Assembly (NCBI GenBank): GCA_021738535.1
Contig: JAIPBU010000008.1
Span: forward strand, 24,921 to 88,920
Direction: 5' to 3'
Source: Bacteroidales bacterium
GTDB lineage: Bacteria; Bacteroidota; Bacteroidia; Bacteroidales; VadinHA17
DNA: 64,000 nucleotides
Under the pieces are notes generated by a model that did not search any database, had not been told where the DNA came from, and was given only the letters and a program-made list of their open reading frames with translations. Positions 5,858 through 24,965 of this stretch are shown in pieces (position 1 is the stretch's first letter; every line of letters begins with the position of its first letter). The translations under genes and the position numbers were made by a program.

Positions 5858-5862
5858 TAAAC

Positions 5863-7476: not shown

Positions 7477-7523
7477 TTGAGAATAAGAGTAATTTTTTGA
7501 TTAGGTTTAATTTGGGTAATTTA

Positions 7524-7551
7524 AGCCGGGAAATTTTTCCCGGCTTTTTTA
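7524..7551 (+). terminator. Intrinsic terminator after SusD pair 1
   Basis: GCCGGGAAA / TTTCCCGGC stem around a short A/T loop, followed by TTTTTT. It lies 48 nt after the stop codon. Confidence 0.8.
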
Positions 7552-7999
7552 TTGCAGAACTTATTTTCATGATTTATAAATAAGCACGAAGAGACATAAT
7601 TTTTTTTAATTTCTATAGCTTATTAAAAAATGTTTTGTATATTGCCAGCATGTATTAAGTGTATTAATTACATTTATATATCTTAAACAAATGATGCTTC
7701 AGAGTTTATAACCGAATATCAAAGGAGGTCATTATCGGATAATATTAACAAACTAATTGTGAAAGCATTTAATTGACTAATTGTAAAATGTTAAGAGATA
7801 AATTTATAAGTGTAAATAAAACATTAAAAAATATTTGTAACTAACCCTAAATATTATTCTAAAAAAGTGCAGTTATGACATAGTATTACATGTTGGAAAA
7901 AGTGGTAATAATAAGAAGCTCTCCGGAGTAACAAAGTTTTTACCATTTGGATTACCCGAGATAAGTTATTGATAAATAATTAATTTAAACCTATTAAGT

Positions 8000-10900
8000 A
8001 TGAAACCTGGATTACAAGGGAAATTAAAATTACTGTTGTTGTTGGTCTTCCTGGTCCCGGCCACATTAATGGCCCAGGTAAGGACAATTACGGGTACCGT
8101 AACAGATGAGGGGGGAGAGACTCTTCCCGGTGTTTCGGTTATTGTGGTTGGAACTACCAGGGGAGTATCAACAGACATGGATGGAAATTATTCCATCCAG
8201 GCATCTACCGGTGAAAAGCTGGAATTCTCTTTTGTGGGAATGGAAACACAATCTCTTACCATTGAAGAGAATCAGTCTGTAATCGATGTTACCCTCAGCT
8301 CTGCAGTTGAAATACTGGATGAAGTTGTGGTAGTTGGTTATGGTGTCCAAAAGAAAGAAACCATTGCCGGTGCAGTTTCACAGGTAAGTGGTGACAAGCT
8401 TATGGATGTAAAAATGGGAGGAAGTCTTGAAAATACCCTGCAGGGGAATCTCCCTGGCCTGGTTGTTGTTATGCAGGACCCGACCCCCGGTGAAGAAGCA
8501 AATTCAATTACAATGCAGATAAGGGGTGGTGCCTCTATGGGCAATAACTCTCCCCTGATTCTGGTTGATGGTGTGGAAAGGTCATTTTCAAACCTTGATC
8601 CCAATGAGATTGCTTCAATATCAATTCTGAAGGATGCATCAGCTACTGCCGTATATGGTGTTAAAGGGGCTAACGGTGTTATTATTGTAAACACCAAGCG
8701 TGGACGAAAAGGCGCTGTCGAGCTGGATTTTTCTGCTATGACATCTATAAAAAGCCCGACGCGTTTGCCTGAATACATGAATGCCTATGAGACTCTGGAG
8801 CTCAGAAATGAAGCGTATAAAAATGATGGTATGTGGGACAGGATCATATCAGATGAGGCCCTTGAACACTACAGGTTACAGGATGCACCATATTTATATC
8901 CTGATTTTGACTGGATGGACTTTTACTTTGGTTCAGCAGTTGACCAGAATTATAACCTGAATGCCAGGGGTGGTAATGATTTTGTTCAGTATTTTGTATC
9001 TGTCGGATACCTGACTGAAGGGGATGTTTTTAAAGTGGGTGATGTATTTCCCTACGATTATGATGGCAGGAATGCTCATTACTGGCACAACAGGTACACT
9101 TTCAGGAATAATCTCGATTTTAACCTTACCAAAACAACTGAACTTGCAGTTAACCTTGGAGGATACCTTAAAGTGTGGAATAAACCTGAGGACTATTATA
9201 CCCAGGAAACCTGGTTTGAATCGGTAACAACAATGCCTTATTATCCGGAAGAAGCTGTAGAGAAGTACCCGGATCCTTTGATCCCTTATGATCAGGAAGG
9301 TAAGAGACCTTTTATTAAACCGGACCAGGGACAGGTCAGGTTGATGTGGTTAGGCGGTCGAGGATTTCACAGGATGAAGAGTAATGAAGTTACTTCTGAC
9401 ATTGATCTCACACAGAAGCTGGATTTTATTACTGAAGGCCTTTCTGCATCAGTTGGATATTCATATACTGGGAATGTTGATTATCGCCAGGTTTTCTTCC
9501 TGAGTGACTACATGGCATATAATCTCAATCCTACTGACAGCACTTGGACCCGCTACGACTTTAATGGTAATGTTAATTACGACAAGCCTCAGCCTAAACT
9601 TGATGTTTCTGCCGATGAACAGTTACGGGGAACTTTCCGCAGCCATTATTATAATGCACAGCTTAATTATGACAGGTCGTTTGGAAATCATAATGTATCC
9701 GCTGTAGGAGTATTTAGCAGAAGACAGGCCCAGTATTCCGCAAATTTCCCGAGTTACGAGGAGAACTGGGTCGGAAGGGCTACTTATAACTATGATGGAC
9801 GCTATCTTTTCGAAGCAAGTGTAGCATACACCGGATCTGAAAAATTTGCTCCGGGATTGAGATATGGTACCTTCCCGGCATTTTCTGCAGGCTGGGTGTT
9901 ATCCGAAGAAGACTTTTTCAGACAGGCTGCGCCATGGGTTAATTATTTGAAAATCAGAGCATCATGGGGTAAGGTTGGTAGTGATGCCGGTATAGCAAGG
10001 TGGCTGTACCTGTCAGAATATACCAATGGTAGTGGAGCACAGGGCTTTGGTTATCCCATGAACTATTATCCATTTATAAACGAGGGGTCTATTCCTGTTA
10101 CAGATGCCACCTGGGAAGAAGCTATCAAACGAAACATAGGCTTTGAATCCGGCTTCTTCAGGAATCTTATTACACTTAATATAGATCTATACAATGAATC
10201 ACGTGTTGGCATATTGCAGTCGCGTCGATCAGTACCTTCCTGGGTTGGAGTATCCTCAATAATGGGTAACCTGGGAGAAACAAAAGCTCATGGTATTGAG
10301 ATAGATCTTGGTATTAATAAAACATTTGCAAACGGAATGTTTTTCAGGCTGCACGGAATACTCAGTGCAAACGAGAGCAGGGTGGTCTTTTATGATGAGT
10401 CGCCAACTGTTCCTGAGAACCTGAAAGCAGAAGGTAAACCTGTAGGTCTGGCTCAGAGAATGAATTACTATACACCGACCATGGGTATTCAAAGTACCGG
10501 GTTCTACCAGGACTTTGATGAATTGTTTATGTACCCGCTAGCCAGCGGACCACAGCCTATTGTTGGTGATTTCAAGTATCTGGACTATAATGGTGATGGT
10601 GTTGTTAACAGCCAGGACAGGGTGGTTTCAACTCATCCATTCGTACCTGAGGTAACATGGAGCGGAAGCGTTGAGGTAGGTTATAAAAGCTTATCACTGA
10701 GAGCTGACTTTTACGGAATCAGTTCAGCCCAGTTCCCGATGAGGCAGGGTGGTATGTTCTACCTGTATCCTTTTACCCAGAACAAGGATAATGCATACGA
10801 TATACATGCTGATCACTGGACTCCTGACAACAGGGATCCTTTATATCCCGCTGTACACTCACTTGCAACAAACCAGTATAACTACCAGATTAACAGCTTT

Positions 10901-11143
10901 AGTATACTGGAAGCAAGGTATACCAGGTTAAGGAACCTTTCACTTAATTACCAGTTAAGTGATAACAATGTTCTGAGAACAATTGGCGCTAAATCGGCTA
11001 CTTTTACTGTAACAGGCACCAATCTCTTTACATGGACACCTTTCTTCCTGGGAGGCGATCCGGAAGGTTTCAACATGGGAGTTGATTTTGGTGCTTACCC
11101 GATGATGAAGCGATTCAACTTTGAGTTAAGAGTTACCTTCTAA
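8000..11143 (+). CDS. SusC/RagA-family TonB-dependent outer-membrane transporter (pair 2)
   Basis: Signal peptide ...ATLMAQ. ITGTVTDEGGETLPGVSVIVVG. TonB box/plug LDEVVVVGYGVQKKETIAGAVSQV. SISILKDASATAVYGVKGANGVIIVNTKRG. C-terminus ...FNFELRVTF. Confidence 0.95.
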   Translation: MKPGLQGKLKLLLLLVFLVPATLMAQVRTITGTVTDEGGETLPGVSVIVVGTTRGVSTDMDGNYSIQASTGEKLEFSFVGMETQSLTIEENQSVIDVTLSSAVEILDEVVVVGYGVQKKETIAGAVSQVSGDKLMDVKMGGSLENTLQGNLPGLVVVMQDPTPGEEANSITMQIRGGASMGNNSPLILVDGVERSFSNLDPNEIASISILKDASATAVYGVKGANGVIIVNTKRGRKGAVELDFSAMTSIKSPTRLPEYMNAYETLELRNEAYKNDGMWDRIISDEALEHYRLQDAPYLYPDFDWMDFYFGSAVDQNYNLNARGGNDFVQYFVSVGYLTEGDVFKVGDVFPYDYDGRNAHYWHNRYTFRNNLDFNLTKTTELAVNLGGYLKVWNKPEDYYTQETWFESVTTMPYYPEEAVEKYPDPLIPYDQEGKRPFIKPDQGQVRLMWLGGRGFHRMKSNEVTSDIDLTQKLDFITEGLSASVGYSYTGNVDYRQVFFLSDYMAYNLNPTDSTWTRYDFNGNVNYDKPQPKLDVSADEQLRGTFRSHYYNAQLNYDRSFGNHNVSAVGVFSRRQAQYSANFPSYEENWVGRATYNYDGRYLFEASVAYTGSEKFAPGLRYGTFPAFSAGWVLSEEDFFRQAAPWVNYLKIRASWGKVGSDAGIARWLYLSEYTNGSGAQGFGYPMNYYPFINEGSIPVTDATWEEAIKRNIGFESGFFRNLITLNIDLYNESRVGILQSRRSVPSWVGVSSIMGNLGETKAHGIEIDLGINKTFANGMFFRLHGILSANESRVVFYDESPTVPENLKAEGKPVGLAQRMNYYTPTMGIQSTGFYQDFDELFMYPLASGPQPIVGDFKYLDYNGDGVVNSQDRVVSTHPFVPEVTWSGSVEVGYKSLSLRADFYGISSAQFPMRQGGMFYLYPFTQNKDNAYDIHADHWTPDNRDPLYPAVHSLATNQYNYQINSFSILEARYTRLRNLSLNYQLSDNNVLRTIGAKSATFTVTGTNLFTWTPFFLGGDPEGFNMGVDFGAYPMMKRFNFELRVTF

Positions 11144-11158
11144 TCTGAAAATTATAAT

Positions 11159-12910
11159 ATGATGAAAAAGATAATATACCTATTAATAATTACATCTGCC
11201 GTTATCTTCCAGGGATGCGAAGACTACCTGGATAAGGTGCAGGATTCAACAGGTATGACCGAAGAGGATGTTTTTACAAACTACCTTAATTTCAGGCAGT
11301 TTGAGGACAGAATGTATAAAGACATGGTTGACCCGCTTAACCAGTTCGACTATGCACACATTGCTGCATTGTGCGATGAAGGGTACAATACATCTGACTG
11401 GGAGACCATGCCTATTGCACAGGCAGGCGACTGGTTGCGTTCATACAATACAGGCCAGGCACTGCAGTTTTATGGTGTATGGGGAGCCTGGGAGAGTATC
11501 AGGATTGCAAACCTGTCACTTGAAAATTTACCTATGCTGGAGGGAAATGCAACCCAGGAGCAAATAAACGAACTAAAAGGACAGGCTCATTTTATGAGAG
11601 CATGGTATTACTATGAATTCCTGATCCGCCAGGGTGGCATGCCCTACCTGACTAAGGCACTTAAAGGATCTGATAATTTTGCTATTCCCCGTTTGTCTTA
11701 TCATGAAACGGCATTAAAAATTGTTGCTGATTGTGATACAGCTGCAACACTTTTACCTACTGAGTGGGATATGGCCAACCTGGGAAGACCAACCCAGGGA
11801 GCAGCTATGGCCCTTAAAGCTTCAACCTTGCTCTTTGATGCAAGTCCCACAAATAACCCATCAGATGATGTTTCAAGATGGGAAGCAGCAGCTGATGCTG
11901 CATGGGATGTTATTGAAATGTCTAATAATACAGGCGTATATACCCTGGTTGAATCAAACGGAACCGACCAGGTCTCTTATATGACTCCCGGAGGTGAAGA
12001 AGTTATCACATATCCAAGTGGCTATGACAGTATATTTATGTACACTCCTTTCAATGATGAAATAATATGGGAGTTTTATGAGAGGGTTAATAACGGGGGT
12101 ACACATAATCCCTTTACCGTAGCCAGCCTCTCTTCACCAAGTATCATACAGGGTTTTAGCCCATCTCAGAATATTGTGAGTAAGTATGAAACTATTAATG
12201 GACTTGCAGTTGAGGATGATCCTTCATTTGATGCACAGGATCCGTGGGTAGACAGAGATCCGAGGTTTTATCACTCAATTCTTTTCAACCAGCAAAGGTG
12301 GACCAGTAAAACTGATCTATACCTTGAATTGTGGAAAGGAGGGCGTGAAAGACTCAGTGAGCCTCATTACAGCAAGACAGGATACCTGGCCCGTAAATTC
12401 TGGGGTAAGAATGTTGATTCATGGTCGGGTGCTCCTGCCCCCTATACCCACAGCATTTATTTCAGGCTGGCTGAAATATATCTTATGTACGCAGAGGCAG
12501 CAAATGAAATTGGCGGACCTGATCATACTATATCAGGAGCCTCATTATCTGCCGTTGAAGCTGTCAACGTAGTACGTGCAAGGGTAAATATGCCCGGTGT
12601 TCATACCAGTTACCTGGGAAGCAAAGAAGACTTCAGGGAAAGGATCAAGAATGAACGGGCAGTTGAGCTTTATCTTGAGGGGAAAAGGTTTTTTGACCTG
12701 TCAAGATGGGGTGATGCACATAAAATGGAACACAGAGAGATCTACGGCATTGAACTAACAGAAAATGCCAGCGCTCCTACAGGGTATAATATTAGCGAGA
12801 CAGTGGACCCTGTTTTTACTCTTACTTTCGTGCAGAAGCATTACAGGTGGCCGATACCCACACAGGATGCACTTATGTTTGAAGAGTTTGAACAGAATCC
12901 CGGCTGGTAA
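11159..12910 (+). CDS. SusD/RagB-family outer-membrane lipoprotein (pair 2)
   Basis: Lipobox VIFQGC-EDYLD. ERAVELYLEGKRFFDLSRWG. Tail WPIPTQDALMFEEFEQNPGW. Confidence 0.93.
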   Translation: MMKKIIYLLIITSAVIFQGCEDYLDKVQDSTGMTEEDVFTNYLNFRQFEDRMYKDMVDPLNQFDYAHIAALCDEGYNTSDWETMPIAQAGDWLRSYNTGQALQFYGVWGAWESIRIANLSLENLPMLEGNATQEQINELKGQAHFMRAWYYYEFLIRQGGMPYLTKALKGSDNFAIPRLSYHETALKIVADCDTAATLLPTEWDMANLGRPTQGAAMALKASTLLFDASPTNNPSDDVSRWEAAADAAWDVIEMSNNTGVYTLVESNGTDQVSYMTPGGEEVITYPSGYDSIFMYTPFNDEIIWEFYERVNNGGTHNPFTVASLSSPSIIQGFSPSQNIVSKYETINGLAVEDDPSFDAQDPWVDRDPRFYHSILFNQQRWTSKTDLYLELWKGGRERLSEPHYSKTGYLARKFWGKNVDSWSGAPAPYTHSIYFRLAEIYLMYAEAANEIGGPDHTISGASLSAVEAVNVVRARVNMPGVHTSYLGSKEDFRERIKNERAVELYLEGKRFFDLSRWGDAHKMEHREIYGIELTENASAPTGYNISETVDPVFTLTFVQKHYRWPIPTQDALMFEEFEQNPGW

Positions 12911-12928
12911 GCCTGATCTTTTTAAAGC

Positions 12929-15900
12929 ATGAAAAATGTGCTAAAAACTGAAAAAATGAGAACTATGAATAAAATATTTAATTACCTGTTGAGTATTATC
13001 ACTATCCTGGCATTTCAGGGCCTTATGAACCTGAATGCACAGGATGTGCCTGCTACAACAGTAACAGGCCAGGTGGTTGATGAGTCAGGCCAGCCACTGC
13101 AGAACATTACAGTAAAGTCGTTCAACCTGAAAAACAGTGTTGTAACCGGCGAGAGTGGTGCCTTCTCTATAGAAGTAACCGCCCAGGAGCCTGACAGGAT
13201 CGTTATCTCAGAACCAGGATTTAAACTACTGGTGCTAACAGTTGAGCCCGGAGCCGGTGATCCCGGTGAACTGGTCCTTGAAGAAAAAAGTATGTATGAT
13301 CCGGCTAATGAGATATCACTTCCTTATACTACACTTACTAACAGCCGTTATCCGGGTGCTGTAAGCGTAATAAGCGGTGAAGAGCTTAATTCATACCCTT
13401 CAGATAACCTGCTGGAAGCTCTGCAGGGAAGGATCCCGGGCCTGGTAGTGAATCAATATGATTACATGCCCGGAGAAGAATCTTTTGGAGTGTATATAAG
13501 GGGAGTGGGAGCTACTATATATATAGACGGCACCCCCAGGGATATAACAGGTCTGAATGCTTCTGAAGTAGATAAAGTGGAAGTAATTAAGGACCTGACA
13601 GGACGTGCTGCTCTCGGGTTATCAGGAGCAGGACCTGTACTCTGGATAACCACCAAGACAGGTGATAGTTTTGACAGAAAAATTTCTGTTTCAGCTGAGA
13701 CAGGACTGAGAACTCCAACAGCATTACCATCTTATCTTGGTTCATATGATTATGCTACTCTGTATAATGAGGCACGGCTGAATGATGGCCTGAGTGCATA
13801 TTATTCACAGGAAGACCTTGATGGATATCAGAGCCAGTCAAACCCTACTCTTTACCCCGACATTGATTACTATGATAAGTATGTTAATACTACAACACCT
13901 TTTACAAAAGGAAATATTAATTTCCAGGGTGGAGACGACAGGGTGAACTATTTCACAGCTTTTACATATTATAATTCCAGCGGACTGGAGTCAATGGGTG
14001 AGGTCATCAGGAATAACCGTTATAAGCTTAGAGGTAATGTTAATATACAACTTAATGATTTTATGAAGCTTGGGGTAAATATTGCCGGTTCTTACAATAC
14101 TTCCCGTTATCCTAATTCAGGAGGAGGAGCAGGTGTATTTGATATGTTTGATATTTTTTCAACTTACCCGGCAAATGCTCATCCCGAATCATTTAATGAT
14201 AAGCTTATAATCAGTGATGATTATCCCACTAATGTTACAAATGAACTTATGTACGCCGGTTTTGCAGAAGGACAGGTGCTTAATGCACAAAACACTGCAA
14301 ACCTGGAAATTGACCTTGGAGGAATAACAGAAGGTCTTACATTCAAAGCCAGGGCTACATTTGACATAATGAATCAGATCATTCAAAACCAGGGTGGAAC
14401 AGCTGCTCTTTACAGAATGGAAAACATTGGAGGAATCGATTCTGCAGTTTTGATTGTACCTGAAGAGAATGATGTGGATATGAGCATAGGAAGTAATTAT
14501 TTCAGCAGGCGCACAGAAGCCATGACATCACTTAATTACGAGAAACAAAGTGGTCAGCATTCACTCCTCCTTAATGCAGTTTTCTATATGGGTCTTGATG
14601 AAATGAGAGTTACATGGGATGGTTACCAGCCCGGTAAGATGCAGGATTATTCACTTCGTGCTAACTATGGCTTTGCCGACAAATATCTGATACAGGCAGA
14701 TCTTTCATATTCAGGTAGCATGAGAATGCCTGACGGAGAGCGTTTCTCCTTATATCCAACTGCATCTGCAGCATGGATAATAAGTAATGAAAGTTTTCTA
14801 AGTGAAAGTTCATTTGTTGACTACCTGAAACTCCATGCTTCCTATGGAATAATGGGAATAGGAAATTACAGCATTTCCGGCTATAACCCGTATTACCTGT
14901 ATGAAACATTATGGGGTTACTCAGGGTCATGGACATCAGGGGTTCCCGGAAACTATGGATCCGCAGCTAATATTTATGAAATGTTACAGAACGGATCCGA
15001 TGATTTTAAACTGCCTAAGAAAAGTTATCTGAATATTGGTTTGCAGGGTCAGTTAATGAATAAAGCATTGTCTTTTGAATTTAATTACTTTAACGAACGC
15101 AATTACAATAAGATATCAGCCAGGGTATATTCAACTCCATCACTTATAGGAACAGACTTTTTACAGGCCACCAATTACGGTGAGGATACGAGATGGGGAG
15201 TTGATGGTATGGTGCAGTATTCAGGACAAAGCGGCGACTTTAATTATTCAGTCAGCGTGAATGCAATGTACCTCCGCGGTAAACATGTTGTTGTGGACGA
15301 GCTCGATTACCCGGAAGAATACAGAACACGTACAGGAAAAGATATAGACCTGTTCTGGATATATAATGCCGAAGGATTATACCAGGATGGTGATGAAATT
15401 ACAGACCGTGATGTATCACAGGCATGGGGTAATGTCGTTCCCGGTGATATAAGGTATGAAGACAAGAATAATGACGGACTGGTAGATGAGAGAGATGTAT
15501 ATGCACCCGGAGCTCATTCTCCCAGGCTGTTCTACGGAGCTAATCTGAGCCTGGGTTATAAGAACCTGAAATTGTTTATTGCCGGGCAGGGTATTGCCAA
15601 TGGTGATATGATGTTATATTCTGACAGGTATTTCAGGATTAACAGTCCGGACCAGGCCTATTCAGAATTTATGCTTGACCGCTGGCCGGTAAGTAACGAT
15701 GTACCGAGACTCACTACCACTTCACAGAATAACGTACAGAATTCAACATTCTGGGTTAGAAGTGCTGCTTATTTCAAGATCCGTAACGTAGAGTTAAGTT
15801 ACAGGTTACCCGTGAATGCATCACGGACAATGTTTATGACAGACTCAAGGATCTTTGTAAGAGGAACTAACCTGCTATCAGTTTCAGGACTAAAAGAGTA

Positions 15901-15988
15901 CGGACTCGATCCTGAAAATGTTAATGCAGGAATAACAGGTTATCCTGTATTCAGGACCTTTACTGCAGGTGTGTCGTTTAGTTTTTAA
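12929..15988 (+). CDS. SusC/RagA-family TonB-dependent transporter (pair 3) with degenerate TonB-box region
   Basis: Signal peptide ...LMNLNAQ. VTGQVVDESGQPLQNITVKS. Plug motifs VEVIKDLTGRAALGLSGAGPVLWITTKTG. C-terminus ...FTAGVSFSF. Where pairs 1 and 2 have VVVVGYG(T/V)QKK, this protein has EISLPYTTLTNSRYPGAVSVISGEEL. Alternative starts at 12956 and 12965. Confidence 0.9.
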   Translation: MKNVLKTEKMRTMNKIFNYLLSIITILAFQGLMNLNAQDVPATTVTGQVVDESGQPLQNITVKSFNLKNSVVTGESGAFSIEVTAQEPDRIVISEPGFKLLVLTVEPGAGDPGELVLEEKSMYDPANEISLPYTTLTNSRYPGAVSVISGEELNSYPSDNLLEALQGRIPGLVVNQYDYMPGEESFGVYIRGVGATIYIDGTPRDITGLNASEVDKVEVIKDLTGRAALGLSGAGPVLWITTKTGDSFDRKISVSAETGLRTPTALPSYLGSYDYATLYNEARLNDGLSAYYSQEDLDGYQSQSNPTLYPDIDYYDKYVNTTTPFTKGNINFQGGDDRVNYFTAFTYYNSSGLESMGEVIRNNRYKLRGNVNIQLNDFMKLGVNIAGSYNTSRYPNSGGGAGVFDMFDIFSTYPANAHPESFNDKLIISDDYPTNVTNELMYAGFAEGQVLNAQNTANLEIDLGGITEGLTFKARATFDIMNQIIQNQGGTAALYRMENIGGIDSAVLIVPEENDVDMSIGSNYFSRRTEAMTSLNYEKQSGQHSLLLNAVFYMGLDEMRVTWDGYQPGKMQDYSLRANYGFADKYLIQADLSYSGSMRMPDGERFSLYPTASAAWIISNESFLSESSFVDYLKLHASYGIMGIGNYSISGYNPYYLYETLWGYSGSWTSGVPGNYGSAANIYEMLQNGSDDFKLPKKSYLNIGLQGQLMNKALSFEFNYFNERNYNKISARVYSTPSLIGTDFLQATNYGEDTRWGVDGMVQYSGQSGDFNYSVSVNAMYLRGKHVVVDELDYPEEYRTRTGKDIDLFWIYNAEGLYQDGDEITDRDVSQAWGNVVPGDIRYEDKNNDGLVDERDVYAPGAHSPRLFYGANLSLGYKNLKLFIAGQGIANGDMMLYSDRYFRINSPDQAYSEFMLDRWPVSNDVPRLTTTSQNNVQNSTFWVRSAAYFKIRNVELSYRLPVNASRTMFMTDSRIFVRGTNLLSVSGLKEYGLDPENVNAGITGYPVFRTFTAGVSFSF

Positions 15989-16005: not shown

Positions 16006-18153
16006 ATGAAGCGAATAATTTTTATATTTCTGGTAACGGTGATGGTGGCATCAGGCTGTGAATACCTTGAGCCCAGGCCAATACAGGACCTGAGTACAGA
16101 TGAGCTGCTCAGTGCTGCCGACTATGGTGAAGGGCTTCTCACAAAGGCTTATGCAAACCTGAACCCGTATTATGATATTAATTCTGAATATTATACTGAC
16201 AACGCGGTTCCTTCCAATACCGGGTCAAACCTACTGGCTCTTGGCGGATGGACACTTGAAACTAATCCAATTGGTAACTGGAACCACTGGTATAATTCCA
16301 TTGCTTACTGCAATCAGTATCTTGAACTTGGAGAGGATCTGCTCTATAGCGTGTCTGATTCAACTCTGAATGATAAGCTCCAGGTAAACAGGAGGGCAGA
16401 AGCTTTCTTCCTGAGGGCATGGTATCACTGGAAACTATTGCAGACCTATGGTGGTTACGCGGAAGGAGGATCTGAAGCCTTAGGTGTTCCTGTTGTTACA
16501 GAATCACTTTCCAGGGAAGATAACCTTGACCTTCCAAGAGATACCTATGAAGATGTAGTGGCACAGATAGTTCAGGATCTTGATTCTGTTATAGCAGTGC
16601 TCCCGTTTGCTTATGACGGATCATCCCTTACAGACAATATTACGAACAGGGGACGGGCATCCGGTCTTGCTGCATTGGCGCTGAAGGCCAGGGTTTACCT
16701 GTATGCCGCAAGTCCCGCTTACGGCCCTTCAACACCGGAACTGTGGGAAAGAGCTGCAGAAGCTGCATATGAGGCAATAGATACTTCGGGTGGTCTTACT
16801 GATCTGGATTATTACGGCGATTTTAATGATTTCAGCAGCTATGATAATATCTGGATTCAGCCTCCCTTTACCTCAAATGCATGGGAGAGGACCTACTACC
16901 CGCCATCCCTGTATGGTAATGGACAGGGAAACCCATCGCAAAACCTGGTGGATGCTTTTCCAGCAGCTGATGGATATCCCATTGATGAGAGTACGGTTTA
17001 TGATCAGGATGACCCATACAGTAACCGTGATCCGCGGTTTGAAAGGTTCATCTTTCACAATGGCACAAAATATAACGGTAATTTTATAAGAACTTATGAA
17101 GGCGGACCTGATGCTCCCGGCGGATTGTCACAAAGGGGAACAAGAACAGGTTATTATCTTCAAAAACTCTTAAGTAAAAACGTTAGACTGACACCCGGTG
17201 ATGTTACAAGTGATGTCAAATTCTATACATACCTTGACCGTACAGAACTTTATCTGAATTTTGCCGAAGCTGCAAATGAAGCATTTGGCCCAACTGATTC
17301 CAGGTATGGATTTTCTGCTGCAGATGCCCTCGCCAAAATAAGAGAGCGTGCAGGAATTGATTCTGACCCGTCAACAGGCGGTTACCAGGATCAGTATCTT
17401 GATGATGCTGCAGCGGCAGGGGCAGCTGAATTCAGAGACCTGCTCCATAATGAGAGAAGGGTTGAGCTTTGCTTCGAGGGATTCAGGTTCTGGGATGTAC
17501 GCAGGCTAAATGAAAGTCTTAACCATACCATAAGGGGTGTTAATGTTACGGTGGCAGATAATCCACCTACGCCACCTGTAACCAACCTGGCATTAATTGC
17601 CGATGCTTCTGCTGATTATGTATCGCAGTGGTCAAGCCTGTCATATGTGAATGACGGTGACATGGGCACATTCTTCCATAACTGGTATAGTGGTGACCAA
17701 TGGAGGTATGTTCAGTATGATCTGCCCAGTTATTTTAAAGTTCCCACAAGTAACAATATTTACAAGATCGACAGTGTAGTTGTTCAGTGGTGGGAAGAAT
17801 GCCCGACCTGCGGTGTTCAGTACCCGGACAGTGTCAGGCTGGAATCATGGGATGCTGATGCGGGAGAATGGGTTGAACTGGAAACAGATTATGATGGCAT
17901 AACAGAGGACTACTGGAAAGTGTCTTTCGCTTCCGGTCTCGAAACTGGTAGCCTGAGACTTAATTTCAGGGACGATGCTTCATGTGGCATTAAAGAATTT
18001 TATGTGTGGGGTGCAACCCTGGATAAACCTGTTTTTGAATATGAATACGTGGATGTTGAAGACCATACATTCCAGGATTATATGAGGTATGTCCCATTAC
18101 CTTATTCGCAAACTCTTACAATGAGTAATCTGCAACAAAATAGCGGATGGTAA
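16006..18153 (+). CDS. SusD/RagB-family lipoprotein (pair 3) carrying an internal ~155-aa beta-sandwich-like insertion
   Basis: Lipobox MVASGC-EYLE. SusD core ...NERRVELCFEGFRFWDVRRL. SusD tail ...PLPYSQTLTMSNLQQNSGW. At 715 aa it is longer than its neighbours (537 and 583 aa), because of an extra segment at nt ~17560-18030. Confidence 0.9.
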   Translation: MKRIIFIFLVTVMVASGCEYLEPRPIQDLSTDELLSAADYGEGLLTKAYANLNPYYDINSEYYTDNAVPSNTGSNLLALGGWTLETNPIGNWNHWYNSIAYCNQYLELGEDLLYSVSDSTLNDKLQVNRRAEAFFLRAWYHWKLLQTYGGYAEGGSEALGVPVVTESLSREDNLDLPRDTYEDVVAQIVQDLDSVIAVLPFAYDGSSLTDNITNRGRASGLAALALKARVYLYAASPAYGPSTPELWERAAEAAYEAIDTSGGLTDLDYYGDFNDFSSYDNIWIQPPFTSNAWERTYYPPSLYGNGQGNPSQNLVDAFPAADGYPIDESTVYDQDDPYSNRDPRFERFIFHNGTKYNGNFIRTYEGGPDAPGGLSQRGTRTGYYLQKLLSKNVRLTPGDVTSDVKFYTYLDRTELYLNFAEAANEAFGPTDSRYGFSAADALAKIRERAGIDSDPSTGGYQDQYLDDAAAAGAAEFRDLLHNERRVELCFEGFRFWDVRRLNESLNHTIRGVNVTVADNPPTPPVTNLALIADASADYVSQWSSLSYVNDGDMGTFFHNWYSGDQWRYVQYDLPSYFKVPTSNNIYKIDSVVVQWWEECPTCGVQYPDSVRLESWDADAGEWVELETDYDGITEDYWKVSFASGLETGSLRLNFRDDASCGIKEFYVWGATLDKPVFEYEYVDVEDHTFQDYMRYVPLPYSQTLTMSNLQQNSGW

Positions 18154-18167
18154 TTAAGGGCATCTAA

Positions 18168-19547
18168 ATGATAATATTTAAAATGAGAATTATGAAAAAT
18201 ATAGTTATTATCTTACTCCTGCTGGGCTTGATGACAACAGGCTGTTACGATGATTTCAGAAATGATTACCCGTACACAACCGTTGCTTTCTCAACCGCAA
18301 CTGGGGGATTAACAAGCCAGGGAGAACTGGGAAGAACAGTTGTTATGGGGGAAGGACTGGAAATGGACTTCGGTGTTTATGTTGCAGGCCTCCTCGAAAA
18401 TGATAAGGAATGGTGGGCTGATTTTATTATTGATCCTTCATTGCTTAATGGTACACCATACCAGCTGATGCCTGAGAGCTATTATACTCTCAGTAATGAC
18501 AGCAGGATAACAATCCCGTCCGGCGATTATGTCGGTAAGGTGACTGTTACTCTTGATTCAGCTGCATTTGTTTCAGATCCACTTTCGGTAGATTTTAATT
18601 ATGCACTGCCAATCAGGCTTACAGATACTAATGCCGATTCTTTACATACTGCCCAGAGTGAAAAAATTCTTGTGCTGAAATATATTAATAGCTATGAAGG
18701 CTATTATGACCAGGAGGGTAGCTACCAGACTGTTGATGCAGGATCAACAATCAATGAGGGCATAATTAATAATGTAATAATGGCCAGTACTCACTCTCTT
18801 GACTCAGTTATTGCCAATGGTATGATTTATATTGGTGCCGAATATGAGGTTAAGTATAATGTGAATGCTGATAATTCAGTATATATTGAGAAAATGCCTG
18901 TATCACCACCGGAACCAACTAACCTCGCCGGAGCAGCTACCATTTCAACAGATTATGTTAGTGGCTGGGAAGATATTGAAGGTATCCGTGACGGTTATGA
19001 TCCGCAGGACTCAGGTGATAAAAACGGAGCAGCCTTTGGTAACTGGTACAGTGGAGGTGAATGGGGCTGGATCCAGTACGAATGGTCAGACCTTTATTAT
19101 ATAGATCAGTCAGATATCTACTGGTGGACTGACGGAGGGGGTATATTGATACCAACAGACAGTTATATTGAGTACTGGAATACCGAAACAGAACAGTGGG
19201 AAACTGTTCCCAATCACAATGGTTTTGGTGTTGCAGCCGACCAGTATAACATTACAACATTCGATCAAATTATTACGAATAAAATTCGTATAAATTTTAT
19301 AAATGATACCGAATCATGTGGAGTACTGGAATGGAAAGTATGGGGAGTAATGGCAGCAGTAACACCTGAGCAGGCTGTTATAGAATCAGTATCGCCCGAA
19401 GGCGATTGCAGCTTTGATCCTGAAAATGATGCATTCAACCTCAATTACAGGATAGACTATGAAAACCAGGACTATTACACAATAGTAAACACAACTCTTA
19501 CCTGGAGAAACAGGATAAGAGATGGCGTAAATGAATGGAGAAGATAG
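18168..19547 (+). CDS. DUF1735-type PUL surface lipoprotein (putative surface glycan-binding protein) carrying the same inserted module as the upstream SusD
   Basis: Lipobox LGLMTTGC-YDDF (the likely true start is MKNIV at 18192). The N-terminal segment YPYTTVAFS...TIPSGDYVGKVTVTLD...YALPIRL is typical of DUF1735/BT_3987-like domains. The module at nt ~18911-19350 is homologous to SusD3 nt ~17560-18030. Confidence 0.8.
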   Translation: MIIFKMRIMKNIVIILLLLGLMTTGCYDDFRNDYPYTTVAFSTATGGLTSQGELGRTVVMGEGLEMDFGVYVAGLLENDKEWWADFIIDPSLLNGTPYQLMPESYYTLSNDSRITIPSGDYVGKVTVTLDSAAFVSDPLSVDFNYALPIRLTDTNADSLHTAQSEKILVLKYINSYEGYYDQEGSYQTVDAGSTINEGIINNVIMASTHSLDSVIANGMIYIGAEYEVKYNVNADNSVYIEKMPVSPPEPTNLAGAATISTDYVSGWEDIEGIRDGYDPQDSGDKNGAAFGNWYSGGEWGWIQYEWSDLYYIDQSDIYWWTDGGGILIPTDSYIEYWNTETEQWETVPNHNGFGVAADQYNITTFDQIITNKIRINFINDTESCGVLEWKVWGVMAAVTPEQAVIESVSPEGDCSFDPENDAFNLNYRIDYENQDYYTIVNTTLTWRNRIRDGVNEWRR

Positions 19548-19604: not shown

Positions 19605-19660
19605 TATAAAATTTCATGGATCAAAAAATCTCGATCCTGCTTAATTTGAAACAGAGTGGA

Positions 19661-21835
19661 ATGCATAGAAAAGAATTGTTGTTAATTCTTATTTGTTTAT
19701 TGCTTTTGTTCCGGACATCGGAATTGTCAGCACAGAAAACAGTTTTTATCCCTGCCGAATGGGATGAAAGGGGGATACCCTATTCGATGGAGAGAAGCTA
19801 TGAAAGTGAAAATTTTATTATCTTCTGGGGTGAAAAGGCAGGTGAATATCCGCTGAACGCACCACCCGATATCAGGTTTGATCCCGAAGAAACTGCAAAC
19901 ATTCTTGAAGGTGTTTTTTCCTGGTATGTTAATGAGGTTGAGCTTATCCCGGCAGACCATGGTAATTTTGCTCTTTACAAGTTTATTATTGTGATAAATG
20001 AAACCTGGAACCCACTGCCTGACGGATCAGAAATTTTTACCGGCTGGGCATTTGGGGGCTCTTATGAGTCTACCATAGGAGCTATGTGGATTCATCCAAA
20101 AGCACTCAATGATTTTACACTGACCCATGAATTTACCCATAGCATGCAAAATATGGCATGGATAGATTACCCGGGGCATGGATTTATTAACCATGATTAT
20201 GTGGGATCATTCTGGGAAACACATGCCAATTTTATGGCACTGCAGAAAAATCCTGAACTGGTAGAAAATACTGATCCCGCAAGATTTCTTTCAACCCAGC
20301 ATTTCTATTGGAGCTCTGCCAGGCACCATTATACTAACTGGATGTTCCTGCAATACATACTCGATACAGAGGGAATGGAATTTATTAACCGTATGTGGCG
20401 TGAGTCTGATATCGGAGAGCATCCGCTTCAAACACTTAAACGCCTGAAGGGAATTGATCAGGCTGGCCTCAATGATATGTTTGCCAGGTACGCAATGAGG
20501 AACGTGACTTTTGATTATTCAACTCGTCAGGAGATCAGGTACTCAGTTAATTATGATATCGACAGCAGGTATATCACAAGGCGCTTTACAATACCTGAAG
20601 AGATAAGCAGTTCCAGCGGAAGGTATATAGTGCCACGGCACCTGGCACCACAGGATTATGGTTATAACATAATCAGGTTATACCCGGATACGGATACATC
20701 AACAGTATCAGTTAAATTCAGAATACATGATAACGCCAATGCCGGCGGCGGAGGTACACGGACAGGGTTTGTCTTTGCAAAAGATGACGGGACAGCCAGG
20801 TATAGCAGTGTTTTTAATAATGATTTTACTACGGATTTTAAGATGGGCGAAGGAGAGACAGAACTCTATATGATCGTTACCGGTGCACCGGACAATCATC
20901 ATAATTATTCGTGGGAGCCGGGATTCCCAAAAATATACAGATTCCCCTGGGAGATGAGAATTGAAGGAGCCAGGCCAAATGGATATAATGATGACCCCTC
21001 GGCTGAGTATAAACCCGGCGCAGGGCGAACACATATTAACGGGGGAGGCTTTGTGTCTTATAGCGCCTCTGTAAGTGCATCTGCATATGTTGCTCCGGAT
21101 GCCGTTGTACGGGATAATGCTGTTGTGGGCCCAGGTGCCAGAATTGAAGGAGCAGCAGTAGTAATGGAGAATGCGGTTATAGAGGGTGAAGCCATAGTGT
21201 CTGGTTTTTCAGTTGTTGGTGGTAATGCTAATATAAAAGACTACGCCAGGGTGGAAGAATATGCAAGAGCCAATAATGGTGCAGTAATAAGTGGAAATGC
21301 TACGGTCAGGGGCTCTGCCTCTGTCTTTCATTCAACCGTGACAGATAATGCCACAGTTAAAGATAATGCATCAATGTGGGGGGCAACACTTGAAGGAACA
21401 GTAACAATAGGAGGCGATGCAGAGCATTTTGGTGCGTGCTCCTCAGGTACCTATTTGCAAATATACGGGCTTGATGGCAGGTCCTGCGATGGTAATGATG
21501 ATCACTCACTTAACGAAGACATTAACCCGGATTATTCTCCCTTCACTGACAGTGAAATGGGGGTTACAGCTGTAGGAAACCTTAAAAACGGTCCAAAACC
21601 CTACAAAATTATAGGCTCAAGATCTTGTGACAGAGTTCATCTGGTGCAGCGGTACGGGAATGGAACAGGAGTGAGAAGTGTCTCAGTTATAGATGCATCC
21701 GGTAAATTGTTAGGTCATTACAAATACTCACCTCTTGTATCGGATATTATTATAAATACCAGAGGAAAGGGAGTAGTCATAATGAAACTGGAAACCGTTA
21801 AAGGTGTGTTTGTTGAAAAATTTGTTTGCCTTTGA
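19661..21835 (+). CDS. Secreted zincin-like (HExxH) protein with hexapeptide-repeat region and T9SS C-terminal sorting domain
   Basis: The start at 19661 gives the signal peptide MHRKELLLILICLLLLFRTSELSAQ (the ORF is open from 19616). LTHEFTHSMQ, then SFWETHANF 26 residues later (gluzincin-like spacing). About 17 consecutive [VI]-x-x-x-[AST]-x hexapeptides (AYVAPDAVVRDNAVVGPGARIEGAAVVMENAVIEGEAIVSG...). C-terminal ~70 aa (VSVIDASGKLLGHYKY...VVIMKLETVKGVFVEKFVCL) resemble a T9SS sorting domain. Confidence 0.75.
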   Translation: MHRKELLLILICLLLLFRTSELSAQKTVFIPAEWDERGIPYSMERSYESENFIIFWGEKAGEYPLNAPPDIRFDPEETANILEGVFSWYVNEVELIPADHGNFALYKFIIVINETWNPLPDGSEIFTGWAFGGSYESTIGAMWIHPKALNDFTLTHEFTHSMQNMAWIDYPGHGFINHDYVGSFWETHANFMALQKNPELVENTDPARFLSTQHFYWSSARHHYTNWMFLQYILDTEGMEFINRMWRESDIGEHPLQTLKRLKGIDQAGLNDMFARYAMRNVTFDYSTRQEIRYSVNYDIDSRYITRRFTIPEEISSSSGRYIVPRHLAPQDYGYNIIRLYPDTDTSTVSVKFRIHDNANAGGGGTRTGFVFAKDDGTARYSSVFNNDFTTDFKMGEGETELYMIVTGAPDNHHNYSWEPGFPKIYRFPWEMRIEGARPNGYNDDPSAEYKPGAGRTHINGGGFVSYSASVSASAYVAPDAVVRDNAVVGPGARIEGAAVVMENAVIEGEAIVSGFSVVGGNANIKDYARVEEYARANNGAVISGNATVRGSASVFHSTVTDNATVKDNASMWGATLEGTVTIGGDAEHFGACSSGTYLQIYGLDGRSCDGNDDHSLNEDINPDYSPFTDSEMGVTAVGNLKNGPKPYKIIGSRSCDRVHLVQRYGNGTGVRSVSVIDASGKLLGHYKYSPLVSDIIINTRGKGVVIMKLETVKGVFVEKFVCL

Positions 21836-21921: not shown

Positions 21922-22620
21922 ATGAAAAAGATATATTCATTGCTAGAACCAGCTGCCAGTAGCTTTAAGCCCTTGCTGGCCGGTATTCTGTTTGCTTTAC
22001 TATTTTCTTCAGTTTCCTTTTCACAGATAAAAGTGTCTGATGATATTCCACAGTATCTTTTTAACCGCTTTACTGATGGCCTGGTTGTGAAGAAAAGCGG
22101 CGAGAAGGTAGTTGCTGAGCTTAATTACAATATTGCCACCCAGGAAATGATATTTAAACAGGACGGGCAATTCCTTGCCCTGGGTAACCTGAATTCCATA
22201 GATACCGTATATCTTAATAATATGGTATTTATTCCTTCTGACAACATCTTTCTTGAACTTGCTGTAAGTGGAAAAATAAATCTCCTGGTTCAGTTCAGCG
22301 GAACAGCAAGGGTGAAAGGTGAAGACCTTGGGTACGGGGTTAGTTCAGAGACCAGCCGTGTAACTTCAATGTCCTCAATAAGTAATGGCGGTGCCTTGTA
22401 TAACCTGGACCTGCCTGATAACATAGAGATTACAAGGAACATAACATATTATGTCAGACAGGGAGAGGAGATGGAAAGATTTGTTAATGAAAGGGCTTTT
22501 GCCAGATTGTTCAGGGATAAGAAAAAGAAAATTAAGAATTACATTAAGGACAATAACCTTGACTTTGATAATTACAGTCATGTGGTACAGGTAGTTAAAT
22601 GGTTGAATGCTGAGCTTTAG
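21922..22620 (+). CDS. Hypothetical secreted protein, no recognisable family
   Basis: ORF of 232 aa with an N-terminal hydrophobic signal (LLAGILFALLFSSVSFSQ). It is tightly packed between the HExxH gene and GH31. I recognise no motifs. Confidence 0.6.
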   Translation: MKKIYSLLEPAASSFKPLLAGILFALLFSSVSFSQIKVSDDIPQYLFNRFTDGLVVKKSGEKVVAELNYNIATQEMIFKQDGQFLALGNLNSIDTVYLNNMVFIPSDNIFLELAVSGKINLLVQFSGTARVKGEDLGYGVSSETSRVTSMSSISNGGALYNLDLPDNIEITRNITYYVRQGEEMERFVNERAFARLFRDKKKKIKNYIKDNNLDFDNYSHVVQVVKWLNAEL

Positions 22621-22646: not shown

Positions 22647-24965
22647 ATGGCCTTCTCAAAATTCCACTCTGTTAATGTCATGATAATTATATTCCTCTTT
22701 TGTGCAATAAATCTGCATGGTCAAATCCTGGAATATAATAATAAACAGGTTAATATTAGGATTACAGAAACTGCAAAGTCTGCTTTACGTATTACACTTG
22801 AGCCGGCAGGAGGCAATATCGAAAAATCTTCCGAACCAGAACTGGCATTAGTTGATAAGCCGGAAGCAGATCTTTTTTTTAAATCAACACCTAAAACAGG
22901 TAGAGCCGGGACAGAAAATTTTATTATCAATTTTAAAAGTGATCCTCTCGCCTTAAGTATCAGTAATAAAGCAGGAAGAAAAATCCAGGACCTGGTCTTC
23001 AGTGAAAATGACAGTGTAATCTTCAGCCTTGATGACAATCCCATCCTCGGAATGGGAGAAGGTGGTCCGCGTATGGGCAGGGAATGGAGAGATGAAATGA
23101 TAGAGTTTGACAGAAGGGGCAGGATGCACAGGATGGAACCACGTTGGCAGGCAAATGCTTATGGCTCACGTAATCCCGTACCATTACTGGTTGGTACCGG
23201 CGGATGGGGCCTGTTTGTTGTCTCACCATGGGTGCAGGTTGATCTTAGAGATAAGGAAAGAGGTGTGTTTATCCCAACCCGTTCACTTGGTCTGCAGGTG
23301 GGAGTCCAGGACCAGGGAAACCAGCAGCAAAATTCAGGCAAGGGATTGCCACCGGCAGAAAATTATATACCAGGCCGCTTCGATATCTTTGTATTTGATA
23401 TCAGCAAACCGGAAGACTTTATGAATGACCTGGCCGGTATTACCGGTCGTGCTGTAATCCCTCCTGTATGGTCGCTTGGTTACATGCAATCACACAGGAC
23501 CCTGGAGGACGATAAGCAGATGATTGATATTGTGAAAACATTCAGGAAGAAAAAAATTCCTCTCGATGCAGTTATTTACCTTGGCACTGGGTTCTGTCCA
23601 AGGGGGTGGAATACCGAACAACCCTCATTTGATTTTAACCCCCAAGTATTCAGCAAAAAGCCATCAGAGGTGATCGATGATCTTCATGACCTGGATGTAA
23701 AAGTAGTGGTCCATATGGTGCCATGGGACAGGGATAAGCTGCCAACATTGCATGGTAATATTCCTGCGGAAACCGGCGAAAGTATTGATGAATCTCATAT
23801 TTTAAATTATTGGAAACAGCATATAGGGCTGGTTGAAAGTGGAATAGACGCCTGGTGGCCTGATGAGGGAGACTGGTTTAACCTGCATGAACGAATTAAG
23901 CGTCACCAGTTATATTACCAGGGGCCTTTATATACTGAAACAGACACAAGACCGTGGAGCCTGCACAGAAATGGTTATATTGGAATAGCACGCTGGGGTG
24001 GCTGGGTCTGGTCCGGTGATACGGAATCCTCATGGAAAACACTCGAAGGACAGATCGCTGTTGGCATAAATCATTCACTTAGCCTCTCACCTTTCTGGGG
24101 ATCGGATATTGGGGGATTCTACCCAAATGAAGAACTTGATGGTGAACTTTATGCAAGATGGTTCCAGTTTGGTGCTTTCTGCCCTTCCTTCAGGTCACAC
24201 GGACGTACATGGTGGACCCGTTTACCATGGGGTTGGGGCCTTGACGAAATGGGACCTGAGGAAAGCAGGCATAATCCTCTTGAATCAGAATTGAATAATC
24301 CTGAGATAGAACCTGTTTGCAGAAAATATGCCCAACTCAGGTACAGGCTCCTGTCTTATAACTATACCCTGGCATGGGAAGCCCGGACAAAAGGCCTGCC
24401 CATGATGAGGGCTATGTGGTTGCATTACCCGGAAGATAAAAGAGCAATAGCTAAGGGTGACCAGTATATGTGGGGCAGGGATATCCTGGTGGCTCCTGTG
24501 TATGAAAAGGGAGCACTCTCAAGGGAAGTTTACCTTCCAGAAGGAAACTGGTATGATTGGTGGACAAACAAAAAATACACGGGAGGAGAAAATATTACAC
24601 GTAATGTTAAACTTAGCATAATGCCCCTTTTTGTTCGTGAAGGAGCAATAATTCCTTTCGATCCGCCACGACAATATACCGGGCAGCACGTCAGTGACCC
24701 TCTGGAAATAAAAATTTATTCAGGAAGCAATGGTAAATATATATTGTACAGGGATGATGGACTAAGCCTGGATTACCTGGATAATAAACACACAGATATT
24801 ACGGAATTTGTATGGGATGATGAAAGTAAATTACTGACGGTCAGGCCTGCTGGTGTAGGCTCAGGTGCTGATGATACCGGTATGCCAATTAAATTACATC
24901 TTATACCTGGGGGCAAAACAAAACAAGTTGAATACAGAGGTAAGTTATTAAAGGTTAAATTCTGA
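22647..24965 (+). CDS. Glycoside hydrolase family 31 (alpha-glucosidase/alpha-xylosidase type)
   Basis: Signal peptide ...CAINLHGQ. GH31 blocks DAWWPDEGDWF, RPWSLHRNGYIGIARWGGWVWSGDTESSW, FWGSDIGGF, YARWFQFGAFCPSFRSHG. Confidence 0.88.
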   Translation: MAFSKFHSVNVMIIIFLFCAINLHGQILEYNNKQVNIRITETAKSALRITLEPAGGNIEKSSEPELALVDKPEADLFFKSTPKTGRAGTENFIINFKSDPLALSISNKAGRKIQDLVFSENDSVIFSLDDNPILGMGEGGPRMGREWRDEMIEFDRRGRMHRMEPRWQANAYGSRNPVPLLVGTGGWGLFVVSPWVQVDLRDKERGVFIPTRSLGLQVGVQDQGNQQQNSGKGLPPAENYIPGRFDIFVFDISKPEDFMNDLAGITGRAVIPPVWSLGYMQSHRTLEDDKQMIDIVKTFRKKKIPLDAVIYLGTGFCPRGWNTEQPSFDFNPQVFSKKPSEVIDDLHDLDVKVVVHMVPWDRDKLPTLHGNIPAETGESIDESHILNYWKQHIGLVESGIDAWWPDEGDWFNLHERIKRHQLYYQGPLYTETDTRPWSLHRNGYIGIARWGGWVWSGDTESSWKTLEGQIAVGINHSLSLSPFWGSDIGGFYPNEELDGELYARWFQFGAFCPSFRSHGRTWWTRLPWGWGLDEMGPEESRHNPLESELNNPEIEPVCRKYAQLRYRLLSYNYTLAWEARTKGLPMMRAMWLHYPEDKRAIAKGDQYMWGRDILVAPVYEKGALSREVYLPEGNWYDWWTNKKYTGGENITRNVKLSIMPLFVREGAIIPFDPPRQYTGQHVSDPLEIKIYSGSNGKYILYRDDGLSLDYLDNKHTDITEFVWDDESKLLTVRPAGVGSGADDTGMPIKLHLIPGGKTKQVEYRGKLLKVKF

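Follow-up and report, generated by a model that had tools for sequence, protein, structure and literature searches.

The 64-kb window analysed here (64,000 nucleotides of contig JAIPBU010000008.1 from a Bacteroidales bacterium) carries at its start, on the + strand, a polysaccharide utilization locus (PUL). A SusC-like TonB-dependent transporter is encoded directly upstream of a 715-amino-acid (aa) SusD/RagB-family lipoprotein, SusD3, in an order that is kept in the related loci L001-L005, and the gene directly after SusD3, in susE-like position, encodes a DUF1735 lipoprotein of the type of surface glycan-binding proteins (SGBPs). Both SusD3 and the lipoprotein contain an internal module of about 160 aa, referred to as S module and L module, respectively; a six-frame scan with a module hidden Markov model (HMM) detected these two copies only in the window, with 165.8 bits for the S module and 234.9 bits for the L module. 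An initial annotation, made from the sequence alone, had proposed that a galactose-binding-domain-like module was inserted into both proteins. The analyses described below show that the module belongs to a widespread family which is not special to this locus, and that the SusD copy is a recombination cassette exchanged between lineages.

SusD3 is assigned to the SusD/RagB family by Pfam, fold, lipoprotein signal and gene position after SusC. The Pfam profiles SusD_RagB and SusD-like_3 matched with 115.5 bits (cut-off 23.1) and 75 bits (cut-off 27), and the lipobox residue Cys18, which follows a hydrophobic leader, is invariant in the SusD alignment. The database copy of SusD3 (P0001) is called from an internal Met, resulting in a 703-aa protein that has lost the signal peptide. 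An AlphaFold2 (AF2) model obtained with an alignment of 55 sequences reached a predicted local distance difference test score (pLDDT) of 88.3 and a predicted template modelling score (pTM) of 0.84. Foldseek comparison of this model with the Protein Data Bank (PDB) returned exclusively SusD/RagB proteins on ranks 1-49, with 3qnk as best match (E=4.6e-21). The matched proteins comprise at most 615 aa, their TM-scores normalised to the query (TMq) do not exceed 0.55, with a large share of the 715-aa model left unaligned, and apparently none of those on ranks 1-49 covers the insert. A CBM-like domain (CBM, carbohydrate-binding module) nested in a SusD was found neither among these PDB structures nor in the literature searched, which fits the earlier remark that no characterised SusD carries such an insertion.

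The insertion site became evident from an alignment of SusD3 with 120 homologues (121 sequences). An insert of 151-171 aa is present in 49 sequences including the window protein (two of the 49 are truncated), and the other 72 have a loop of 4-8 aa at the identical site. The flanks read ...NHT[IV]xGVxI[TV] before and [FY]xYxxVExH[TS][FY]Q[DE]YMRY after the insert, and the SusD cores on both sides are 57-64% identical to SusD3. In the model, aa 517-676 form a confidently predicted all-beta insert (pLDDT ~88-94). It is bracketed by strands 507-516 and 677-687, the arms of a hairpin that are joined by a short turn in insert-less orthologues; the S module replaces the turn of this conserved C-terminal beta-hairpin. 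The SusD_RagB match extends as far as aa 506, which corresponds to position 239 of the 297 in the profile; the extreme C-terminus of SusD3 consists of the conserved SusD tail. The lengths of 537, 583 and 715 aa reported for the three SusD proteins were confirmed from the open reading frames (ORFs), and the view that the extra segment is internal, with the SusD tail still in place, is borne out by the 72 orthologues with a short loop. The SusD orthologue of L008 begins with ATG TAG at codons 1-2 (5001-5012) and has an otherwise intact frame of 714 codons; this in-frame stop could be a sequencing error, indicate an alternative start or mark a recent pseudogene.

The lipoprotein was classified as DUF1735 SGBP-type by domain, lipobox and gene position. 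Its N-terminal domain matched BT_3987-like_N (DUF1735, PF08522) with 56.8 bits (cut-off 25.9); the match to BT_3044-like_C (DUF4361, PF14274) was weak (16.2 bits, cut-off 23.1), and PF14274 is recorded for several of its homologues. Since Met9 and the lipobox residue Cys26 are invariant in the lipoprotein alignment, translation probably starts at nt 18192 (Met9), eight codons inside the ORF. The AF2 model (pLDDT 90.3) retrieved by Foldseek as first matches the two-domain DUF1735 proteins 3n91, 4jx0, 3nqk and 3sot, with E-values of about 1e-11 to 1e-12 for the DUF1735+DUF4361 structures 3sot and 3nqk. The L module interrupts the C-terminal beta-sandwich between two of its strands, and its own beta structure is likewise predicted with confidence. 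A full module is present in 116 of 121 lipoprotein sequences and is cleanly absent from three (P0234, P0238 and P0239; 299-317 aa), in which the flanking strands join directly, so that the lipoprotein segment is internal as had been stated; the module coordinates given earlier agree with the alignment-based borders within ~25 nt. Six lipoproteins from Flavobacteriia and Marinilabiliales (P0204, P0205, P0211, P0224, P0226 and P0229) carry a sub-insertion of ~20-25 aa ('VVNGVSIPxxDYG...') in one module loop, which suggests further elaboration of one module face. In the homologue P0240 (437 aa) the place of the module is taken by an unrelated stretch of about the same length, perhaps a duplicate of part of the C-terminal domain; the site may therefore accept different inserts.

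The homology of the two segments was clearly demonstrated by BLASTP of the C-terminal part of SusD3 against the lipoprotein, which aligned aa ~519-670 with aa 246-394 (50 identities in 162 positions, 31%; E=7e-20 for that single comparison) and included all five blocks quoted in the initial annotation, among them IDSVVVQWWEE. Pfam F5_F8_type_C matched the S module with E=5.6e-4 and 20.5 bits, under the cut-off of 28.2; the F5/8-type score of the L module was 20.1 bits (cut-off 27.8), and the L module in addition matched a segment of the NCBIfam model for the glycoside hydrolase (GH) family GH121 beta-L-arabinobiosidase HypBA2 (E=1.5e-5). Searching the PDB with the isolated modules as single sequences gave no significant match. 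As Pfam and NCBIfam had yielded only sub-threshold F5/8 matches and the HypBA2 segment, and single-sequence PDB searches nothing, profiles and structure were needed. A module profile of 15 sequences matched the CBM32 of BbhII (7wdt, E=5e-6), the CBM of S. pneumoniae BgaA (4cua, 5e-5) and the CBM32 of C. perfringens GH89 (CpGH89; 2vc9, 6e-3) in the PDB. Foldseek with the lipoprotein model retrieved the BgaA CBM (4cua) with a target-normalised TM-score (TMt) of 0.68 and a root-mean-square deviation of 2.9, CpGH31 CBM32-3 (4lks, TMt 0.67) and BbhII (7wdt, 25% identity over 165 columns), and also the CBM32 of an M. viridifaciens sialidase (2bzd) and the galactose oxidase N-domain. These structural CBM matches are those of the lipoprotein model; the fold of the S module rests on homology to the L module and on its own predicted all-beta structure. 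Judged by profiles and models, the module is a divergent F5/8-type-C/CBM32-like beta-sandwich, and the discoidin-like fold suspected at the outset was recovered even though the Pfam scores are sub-threshold. It shares the beta-sandwich with the known CBM32 modules (7wdt, 4cua, 2vc9, 4lks, 2bzd; Foldseek TMt 0.64-0.68), but differs from those of glycosidases in being divergent and, in the window copies, sub-threshold, in having motifs of its own (GNW, WxxVQY, DGGG or ECPTCG, ESCGI-EW-VWG) and in being nested instead of appended. Relatives within the module family do exceed the gathering score of PF00754 or PF22633 (P0241 with 53.4 bits, P0246 with 71.9 bits, and 13 of 49 representatives).

Table 1. 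Features of the PUL in the 64-kb window (nucleotide positions of the window).
Feature	Position	Strand	Basis
GH3 glycoside hydrolase with PA14 insert	11..2503	+	Pfam Glyco_hydro_3, Glyco_hydro_3_C, PA14, Fn3-like
Two SusC/SusD pairs, their SusD proteins (537 and 583 aa) insert-less	2849..12910	+	Pfam
SusC-like TonB-dependent transporter, 1019 aa, partner of SusD3	12929..15988	+	Pfam Plug and CarboxypepD_reg
SusD3, SusD/RagB-family lipoprotein, 715 aa, with nested module	16006..18153	+	Pfam, AF2, Foldseek
Recombination tract (window-equivalent coordinates; divergent module allele in close relatives)	17497..18064	+	Breakpoint scan
S module, ~160 aa, SusD3 aa 517-676	17554..18033	+	Alignment with insert-less orthologues
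SGBP-like DUF1735 surface lipoprotein, ORF of 459 aa	18168..19547	+	Pfam, AF2, Foldseek
L module, ~159 aa, lipoprotein ORF aa 244-402	18897..19373	+	Alignment with module-less homologues
DUF6055 protein, 739 aa, putative zinc metallopeptidase	19616..21835	+	Pfam DUF6055, HExxH...E motif
Conserved 232-aa protein, no Pfam match	21922..22620	+	Synteny
GH31 glycoside hydrolase, distal PUL enzyme	22647..24965	+	Pfam Glyco_hydro_31 domains

To what extent the module occurs elsewhere was analysed with a module profile against 1.84 billion representative proteins, yielding 1,920 clusters (50% identity) at E<=1e-3, of which 183 reached E<=1e-30. Most carriers are long multidomain proteins, often with two or three module copies. 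DUF6055 was found on five of the nine best matches, on 20 of 147 and on 10 of 49 carriers tested, and ranks first among the catalytic partners; GH127 beta-L-arabinofuranosidase, present on 8 of the 49, is the other usual one, and the same 49 also include type IX secretion system sorting tails (12), LamG3 (5) and GH43 (3). A profile of the SusD modules searched against a database of 5.8 billion sequences retrieved 8 short proteins only. In the syntenic loci L001 (17970-20402) and L002 (2-1660), a GH127 protein carries the module at its C-terminus (module HMM, E ~1e-22); the module is thus found on an enzyme, the SGBP or SusD in different versions of one PUL family. A third module copy is located in L009-L012 at the N-terminus of the gene two positions downstream of the lipoprotein; these ORFs start at ~10960-11120 (L010 ~7680) and the gene runs off the locus end.

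Discoidin folds also bind proteins and lipids. The module might accordingly be regarded as a protein- or peptide-binding adaptor and not as a CBM, serving utilisome assembly with DUF6055, GH127 or the SGBP, or contacting the peptide part of a glycoprotein. The APC10/DOC, neuropilin and factor VIII domains among the Foldseek matches point in this direction, as does the fact that various proteins of one PUL family carry the module, and also the pTM of 0.84 for SusD3, which suggests a fixed module orientation on the lid. Nevertheless, every one of the closest solved relatives of the profile is a glycan-binding CBM32-type module from a glycosidase, and most carriers are multidomain secreted proteins of glycosidase or peptidase type with two to three tandem copies, which is typical CBM behaviour. 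We therefore consider an adaptor function quite unlikely.

The gene adjoining that of the lipoprotein encodes the DUF6055 protein of the window (PF19527, 393 bits), and the same adjacency is found in L001 and L003-L006. Residues H171, E172, H175 and E201 (HExxH...E) are invariant in eight diverse members, and 17 of the 20 members linked to the module show HExxH; because of this motif, DUF6055 proteins are probably zinc metallopeptidases. One publication links the family to MEROPS M106 (PMC11241649; sole source). A profile search of the PDB found no solved relative of DUF6055 by sequence. No module was detected in the DUF6055 protein of the window (hhalign probability 0.3), whose C-terminal part includes, at aa ~475-585, a left-handed beta-helix of hexapeptide repeats, an unusual feature. 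Strict co-occurrence of DUF6055 with module-bearing lipoproteins was considered and did not hold within the flanks available. The 232-aa protein encoded next has a hydrophobic N-terminal leader, and a gene of 231-232 aa likewise lies between DUF6055 and GH31 in L003-L005. On the opposite side, within the limits of the window, the PUL begins with the GH3 gene, and the module HMM gave no match in the two upstream SusC/SusD pairs.

The two module copies differ in their distribution. The lipoprotein module is near-universal in the PUL family, whereas the SusD insert is present in ~40% of the orthologues. Both proteins carry the module in the window and in L003-L013 and L018, the lipoprotein only in L001 and L014-L017, and neither protein in L002, L087 and L088; among the loci examined, none with the module in SusD alone was seen. 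Two of the module-less loci have different downstream enzymes, L087 two sulfatases (10087-13775) and L088 a DUF5695 protein (8998-11799), which hints that module loss accompanies a change of substrate.

Concerning the origin of the SusD copy, the best non-SusD match of all 47 full-length SusD modules was a lipoprotein module, with up to 65% identity. In a neighbour-joining (NJ) tree of 385 modules, S and L modules formed one group against 219 other modules, the outsiders being only three L-like fragments or fusions, and the SusD modules nested within the L modules at two or three places. In the bootstrap analysis, however, S and L modules were recovered as an exact set in 0 of 100 replicates, and with the lipoproteins reduced to two representatives, 45 of the 47 SusD modules scored higher with other modules, mostly those linked to DUF6055. 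The donor assignment hence rests on similarity scores and the NJ point estimate, and in view of the bootstrap result and the dependence on dense lipoprotein sampling it is likely but not proven: most likely, as far as sequence similarity goes, the SusD module was copied from the SGBP module lineage. Recent copying or ongoing gene conversion from the lipoprotein of the same locus is excluded, since the own L module is not the closest one but ranks 3rd to 87th of 113-116; also, the S and L copies share only 42 nt of DNA at 71% identity. A single gain followed by vertical descent was rejected as well. The insert-bearing SusDs do not form one clade (bootstrap 0/200), and the NJ core tree requires at least nine state changes. 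The insert-less proteins P0070 and P0104 are each closest to an insert-bearing core, P0070 being 75.8% identical to the insert-bearing P0014 compared to 66.4% to its nearest insert-less relative.

An independent behaviour of the SusD module is indicated by strongly discordant protein identities, which are 86% in the core and 40% in the module for the window SusD3 (Q) and P0006, 92% and 43% for P0002 and P0008, and, in the reverse order, 66% and 73% for P0007 and P0014. Q and the SusD genes of the close, fully syntenic loci L003, L004 and L005 were compared at the DNA level, using Nei-Gojobori estimates of synonymous (dS) and nonsynonymous (dN) divergence and a two-breakpoint likelihood scan. 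Between L003 and L004, the core has a dS of 0.31 and a dN of 0.045 compared to 2.3 and 0.54 in the module; between L004 and L005, dS is 0.62 in the core and 0.12 in the module. Q and L003, which have the same allele type, differ to about the same degree in both parts, with dS near saturation (core dS 1.98, dN 0.083; module dS 1.93, dN 0.099). In the L003/L004 pair the divergent tract (Table 1) shows 56% nucleotide identity inside and 92% outside, with twice the log-likelihood difference (2dlnL) amounting to 425, and in the comparison of Q with L004 it extends over 17497-18040; the tract brackets the module, with the breakpoints at the module borders. The lipoprotein gene, its module included, and the DUF6055 gene of the same loci show no comparable jump in divergence.

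At least two alleles exist in the window clade, type A with the ECPTCG loop (window and L003; the CxxC loop of the window S module reads 'EECPTCG') and type B with the TDGGG loop (L004 and L005), and further divergent module types are found in related SusDs. Every allele type was encountered, with identical junctions, in two or more independent assemblies. Positive selection by point mutation as the cause of divergence is not compatible with these data, since dS jumps as well, from 0.31 to 2.3, and falls from 0.62 to 0.12 in another pair. As dS shifts together with dN, the pattern is that of old alleles recombining, instead of fast adaptive change by point mutations. Programmed inversion or a shufflon was ruled out, as neither flanking inverted repeats nor silent module copies, nor an invertase, were found in the window. 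Homologous recombination in the conserved hairpin-coding flanks exchanges the module, and the same process would also add or remove the whole insert, which would explain its patchy distribution. The recombining SusD cassette and the tie to DUF6055 and GH127 are the two most informative points, and both had been overlooked in the initial annotation.

Conservation also bears on the possibility that the insert is a neutral or decaying passenger, or an artefact of assembly or annotation. The window S module is the most divergent of the family, with ~31-33% identity to lipoprotein modules, and it stays below the Pfam thresholds, as might be expected for a decaying domain. Its reading frame is nevertheless intact in 48 database clusters from independent assemblies, the junctions recur between assemblies as described above, and the fold is predicted with confidence. 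Moreover, among type A sequences the module protein is not evolving faster than that of the core (Q/L003, dN 0.10 compared to 0.08). A passenger or artefact is thus very improbable and effectively refuted by conservation.

What drives the exchange may be answered in different ways. One possibility is that the SusD module serves chiefly as a variable part of the surface, with diversifying or balancing selection imposed by antagonists that dock on exposed SusCD proteins, such as phages or bacteriocins, so that the surface and not the nutrient specificity changes. Alleles of ~40% identity are indeed swapped between loci that are 92-98% identical at the protein level in SusD core, lipoprotein module and DUF6055; variation systems in Bacteroides are known to act on SusC and SusD (PMC9881135 and, as cited there, PMC2747901); and the toxin-bound SusCD-like complex 8ypt was among the structural matches. 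On the other hand, no phage or toxin link was found for the family, the neighbouring lipoprotein, which should be equally exposed, keeps a stable module, and the SusD module is conserved within an allele type (dN 0.10 at a nearly saturated dS of ~1.9 for Q/L003; dN/dS ~0.3 for L004/L005). Antagonist-driven selection, which would in any case be compatible with glycan binding, appears unlikely as the main explanation.

Taking all findings together, we consider it probable that a CBM32/discoidin-type module is nested in SusD3 and in the SGBP as an extra glycan-capture site and that its SusD copy is an exchanged cassette. A discoidin fold has its two chain termini together at one pole, opposite the binding loops. 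Chain ends meeting at one pole would explain why nesting is tolerated, and by analogy the binding loops of the module would face away from the host protein. The module would thereby provide the lid and the SGBP with an additional capture site for the substrate of DUF6055- or GH127-type enzymes, and both proteins would gain matched, multivalent affinity for the same substrate. We infer glycan binding by the module, and likewise its ligand; on account of the associations with GH127, GH121 and putative peptidases the substrate is possibly an arabinosylated glycoprotein, a ligand class that we name as a reasonable guess with low confidence.

Several observations weigh against the nested glycan-capture module as formulated here. 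Besides the two results on the donor, the bootstrap and the thinned lipoprotein set, the window modules fall below the Pfam F5_F8_type_C gathering score, and within the flanks available DUF6055 is not adjacent in every module-bearing locus. In addition, where loci differ in nothing but the SusD cassette, their lipoprotein modules and DUF6055 genes are almost the same. Because these other components are nearly identical, an exchange that tracks changes of the PUL substrate fits poorly; the exchange may instead reflect retuning of fine specificity, or pressure from agents docking on the exposed SusD. A more general formulation, which we regard as possible but tentative, is that a CBM32-like plug-in cassette hops among SGBP, SusD and enzymes of one PUL family and that deeply divergent SusD alleles, maintained and recombining between lineages, would retune capture or docking while the remaining locus stays unchanged.

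The closest functional analogue of the window PUL is the mucin O-glycoprotein PUL of B. thetaiotaomicron, in which BT4246/47 are SusD/C, BT4245 is a DUF1735+CBM32 SGBP and BT4244 is an M60-like peptidase with CBM32 (PMC11992087). Common to both are SusC/D, a DUF1735 lipoprotein with a discoidin-type module and an enzyme of the zinc-metallopeptidase type with module-bearing relatives, and in either case the module is presumed to tether a glycoprotein to the cell surface by its glycan part. The module is nested in the C-terminal domain of the window lipoprotein but located at the terminus of BT4245; the window SusD contains a further copy, and its 715-aa model is matched only in part (TMq 0.47-0.50) by 5cjz and 5ck1, the structures of BT4246 (~600 aa); the window enzyme is a DUF6055 protein, M106-like according to PMC11241649, in place of M60; and the partners of the window family (GH127, HypBA2-like segment) hint at beta-L-arabinofuranosides instead of Gal/GalNAc.

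As for the individual proteins, the solved SusDs (B. fragilis BF3747 3qnk, BT3013 7bll, levan utilisome 8aa0, SusD 3ck7) have the same alpha-helical fold rich in tetratricopeptide repeats, the lipoprotein anchor and the pairing with SusC, but in comparison to these shorter proteins only SusD3 has a 160-aa domain in place of the hairpin turn. The combination of DUF1735 with a discoidin domain is common as such: 20.7% of DUF1735 proteins have F5/8-type-C C-termini, and the DUF1735+DUF4361 architecture, listed apart from these, accounts for 18.8% (PMC11216935). Lipoproteins of the latter architecture (BACOVA_03322 3sot/3nqk, BT3507) share with the window protein the N-terminal DUF1735 spacer, the C-terminal beta-sandwich and the susE-position gene, whereas the window protein has the discoidin module inserted inside the DUF4361-like domain. 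A module nested in the DUF4361-like domain of an SGBP was not found in the literature searched or in the PDB. The cassette behaviour of the SusD copy was likewise not described in the literature searched. Invertase-driven SusC/SusD variation in Bacteroides (PMC9881135, citing PMC2747901) resembles it in that a surface-exposed SusD alternates between forms; the window SusD, in contrast, varies between lineages through homologous recombination of an internal cassette.

Dozens of module-bearing SusDs are present in databases unremarked, a few of them with automatic PF00754 matches. SusDs are viewed as single-domain helical lids with their specificity in one binding face, and a nested CBM-like domain would change that picture. 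Homologous modules on SusD, SGBP and enzymes would be a new route to multivalent substrate capture, for which close orthologues with the insert, without it and with alternative cassettes represent natural controls. The link to DUF6055 and GH127 provides a lead on an uncharacterised enzyme family and on a candidate substrate class, arabinosylated glycoproteins. With the recombination cassette, selection is seen to act on one exposed domain of the transporter independently of the rest of the locus. If true, the plug-in cassette would add a mechanism of modular specificity or antigenic variation to TonB-dependent glycan importers.

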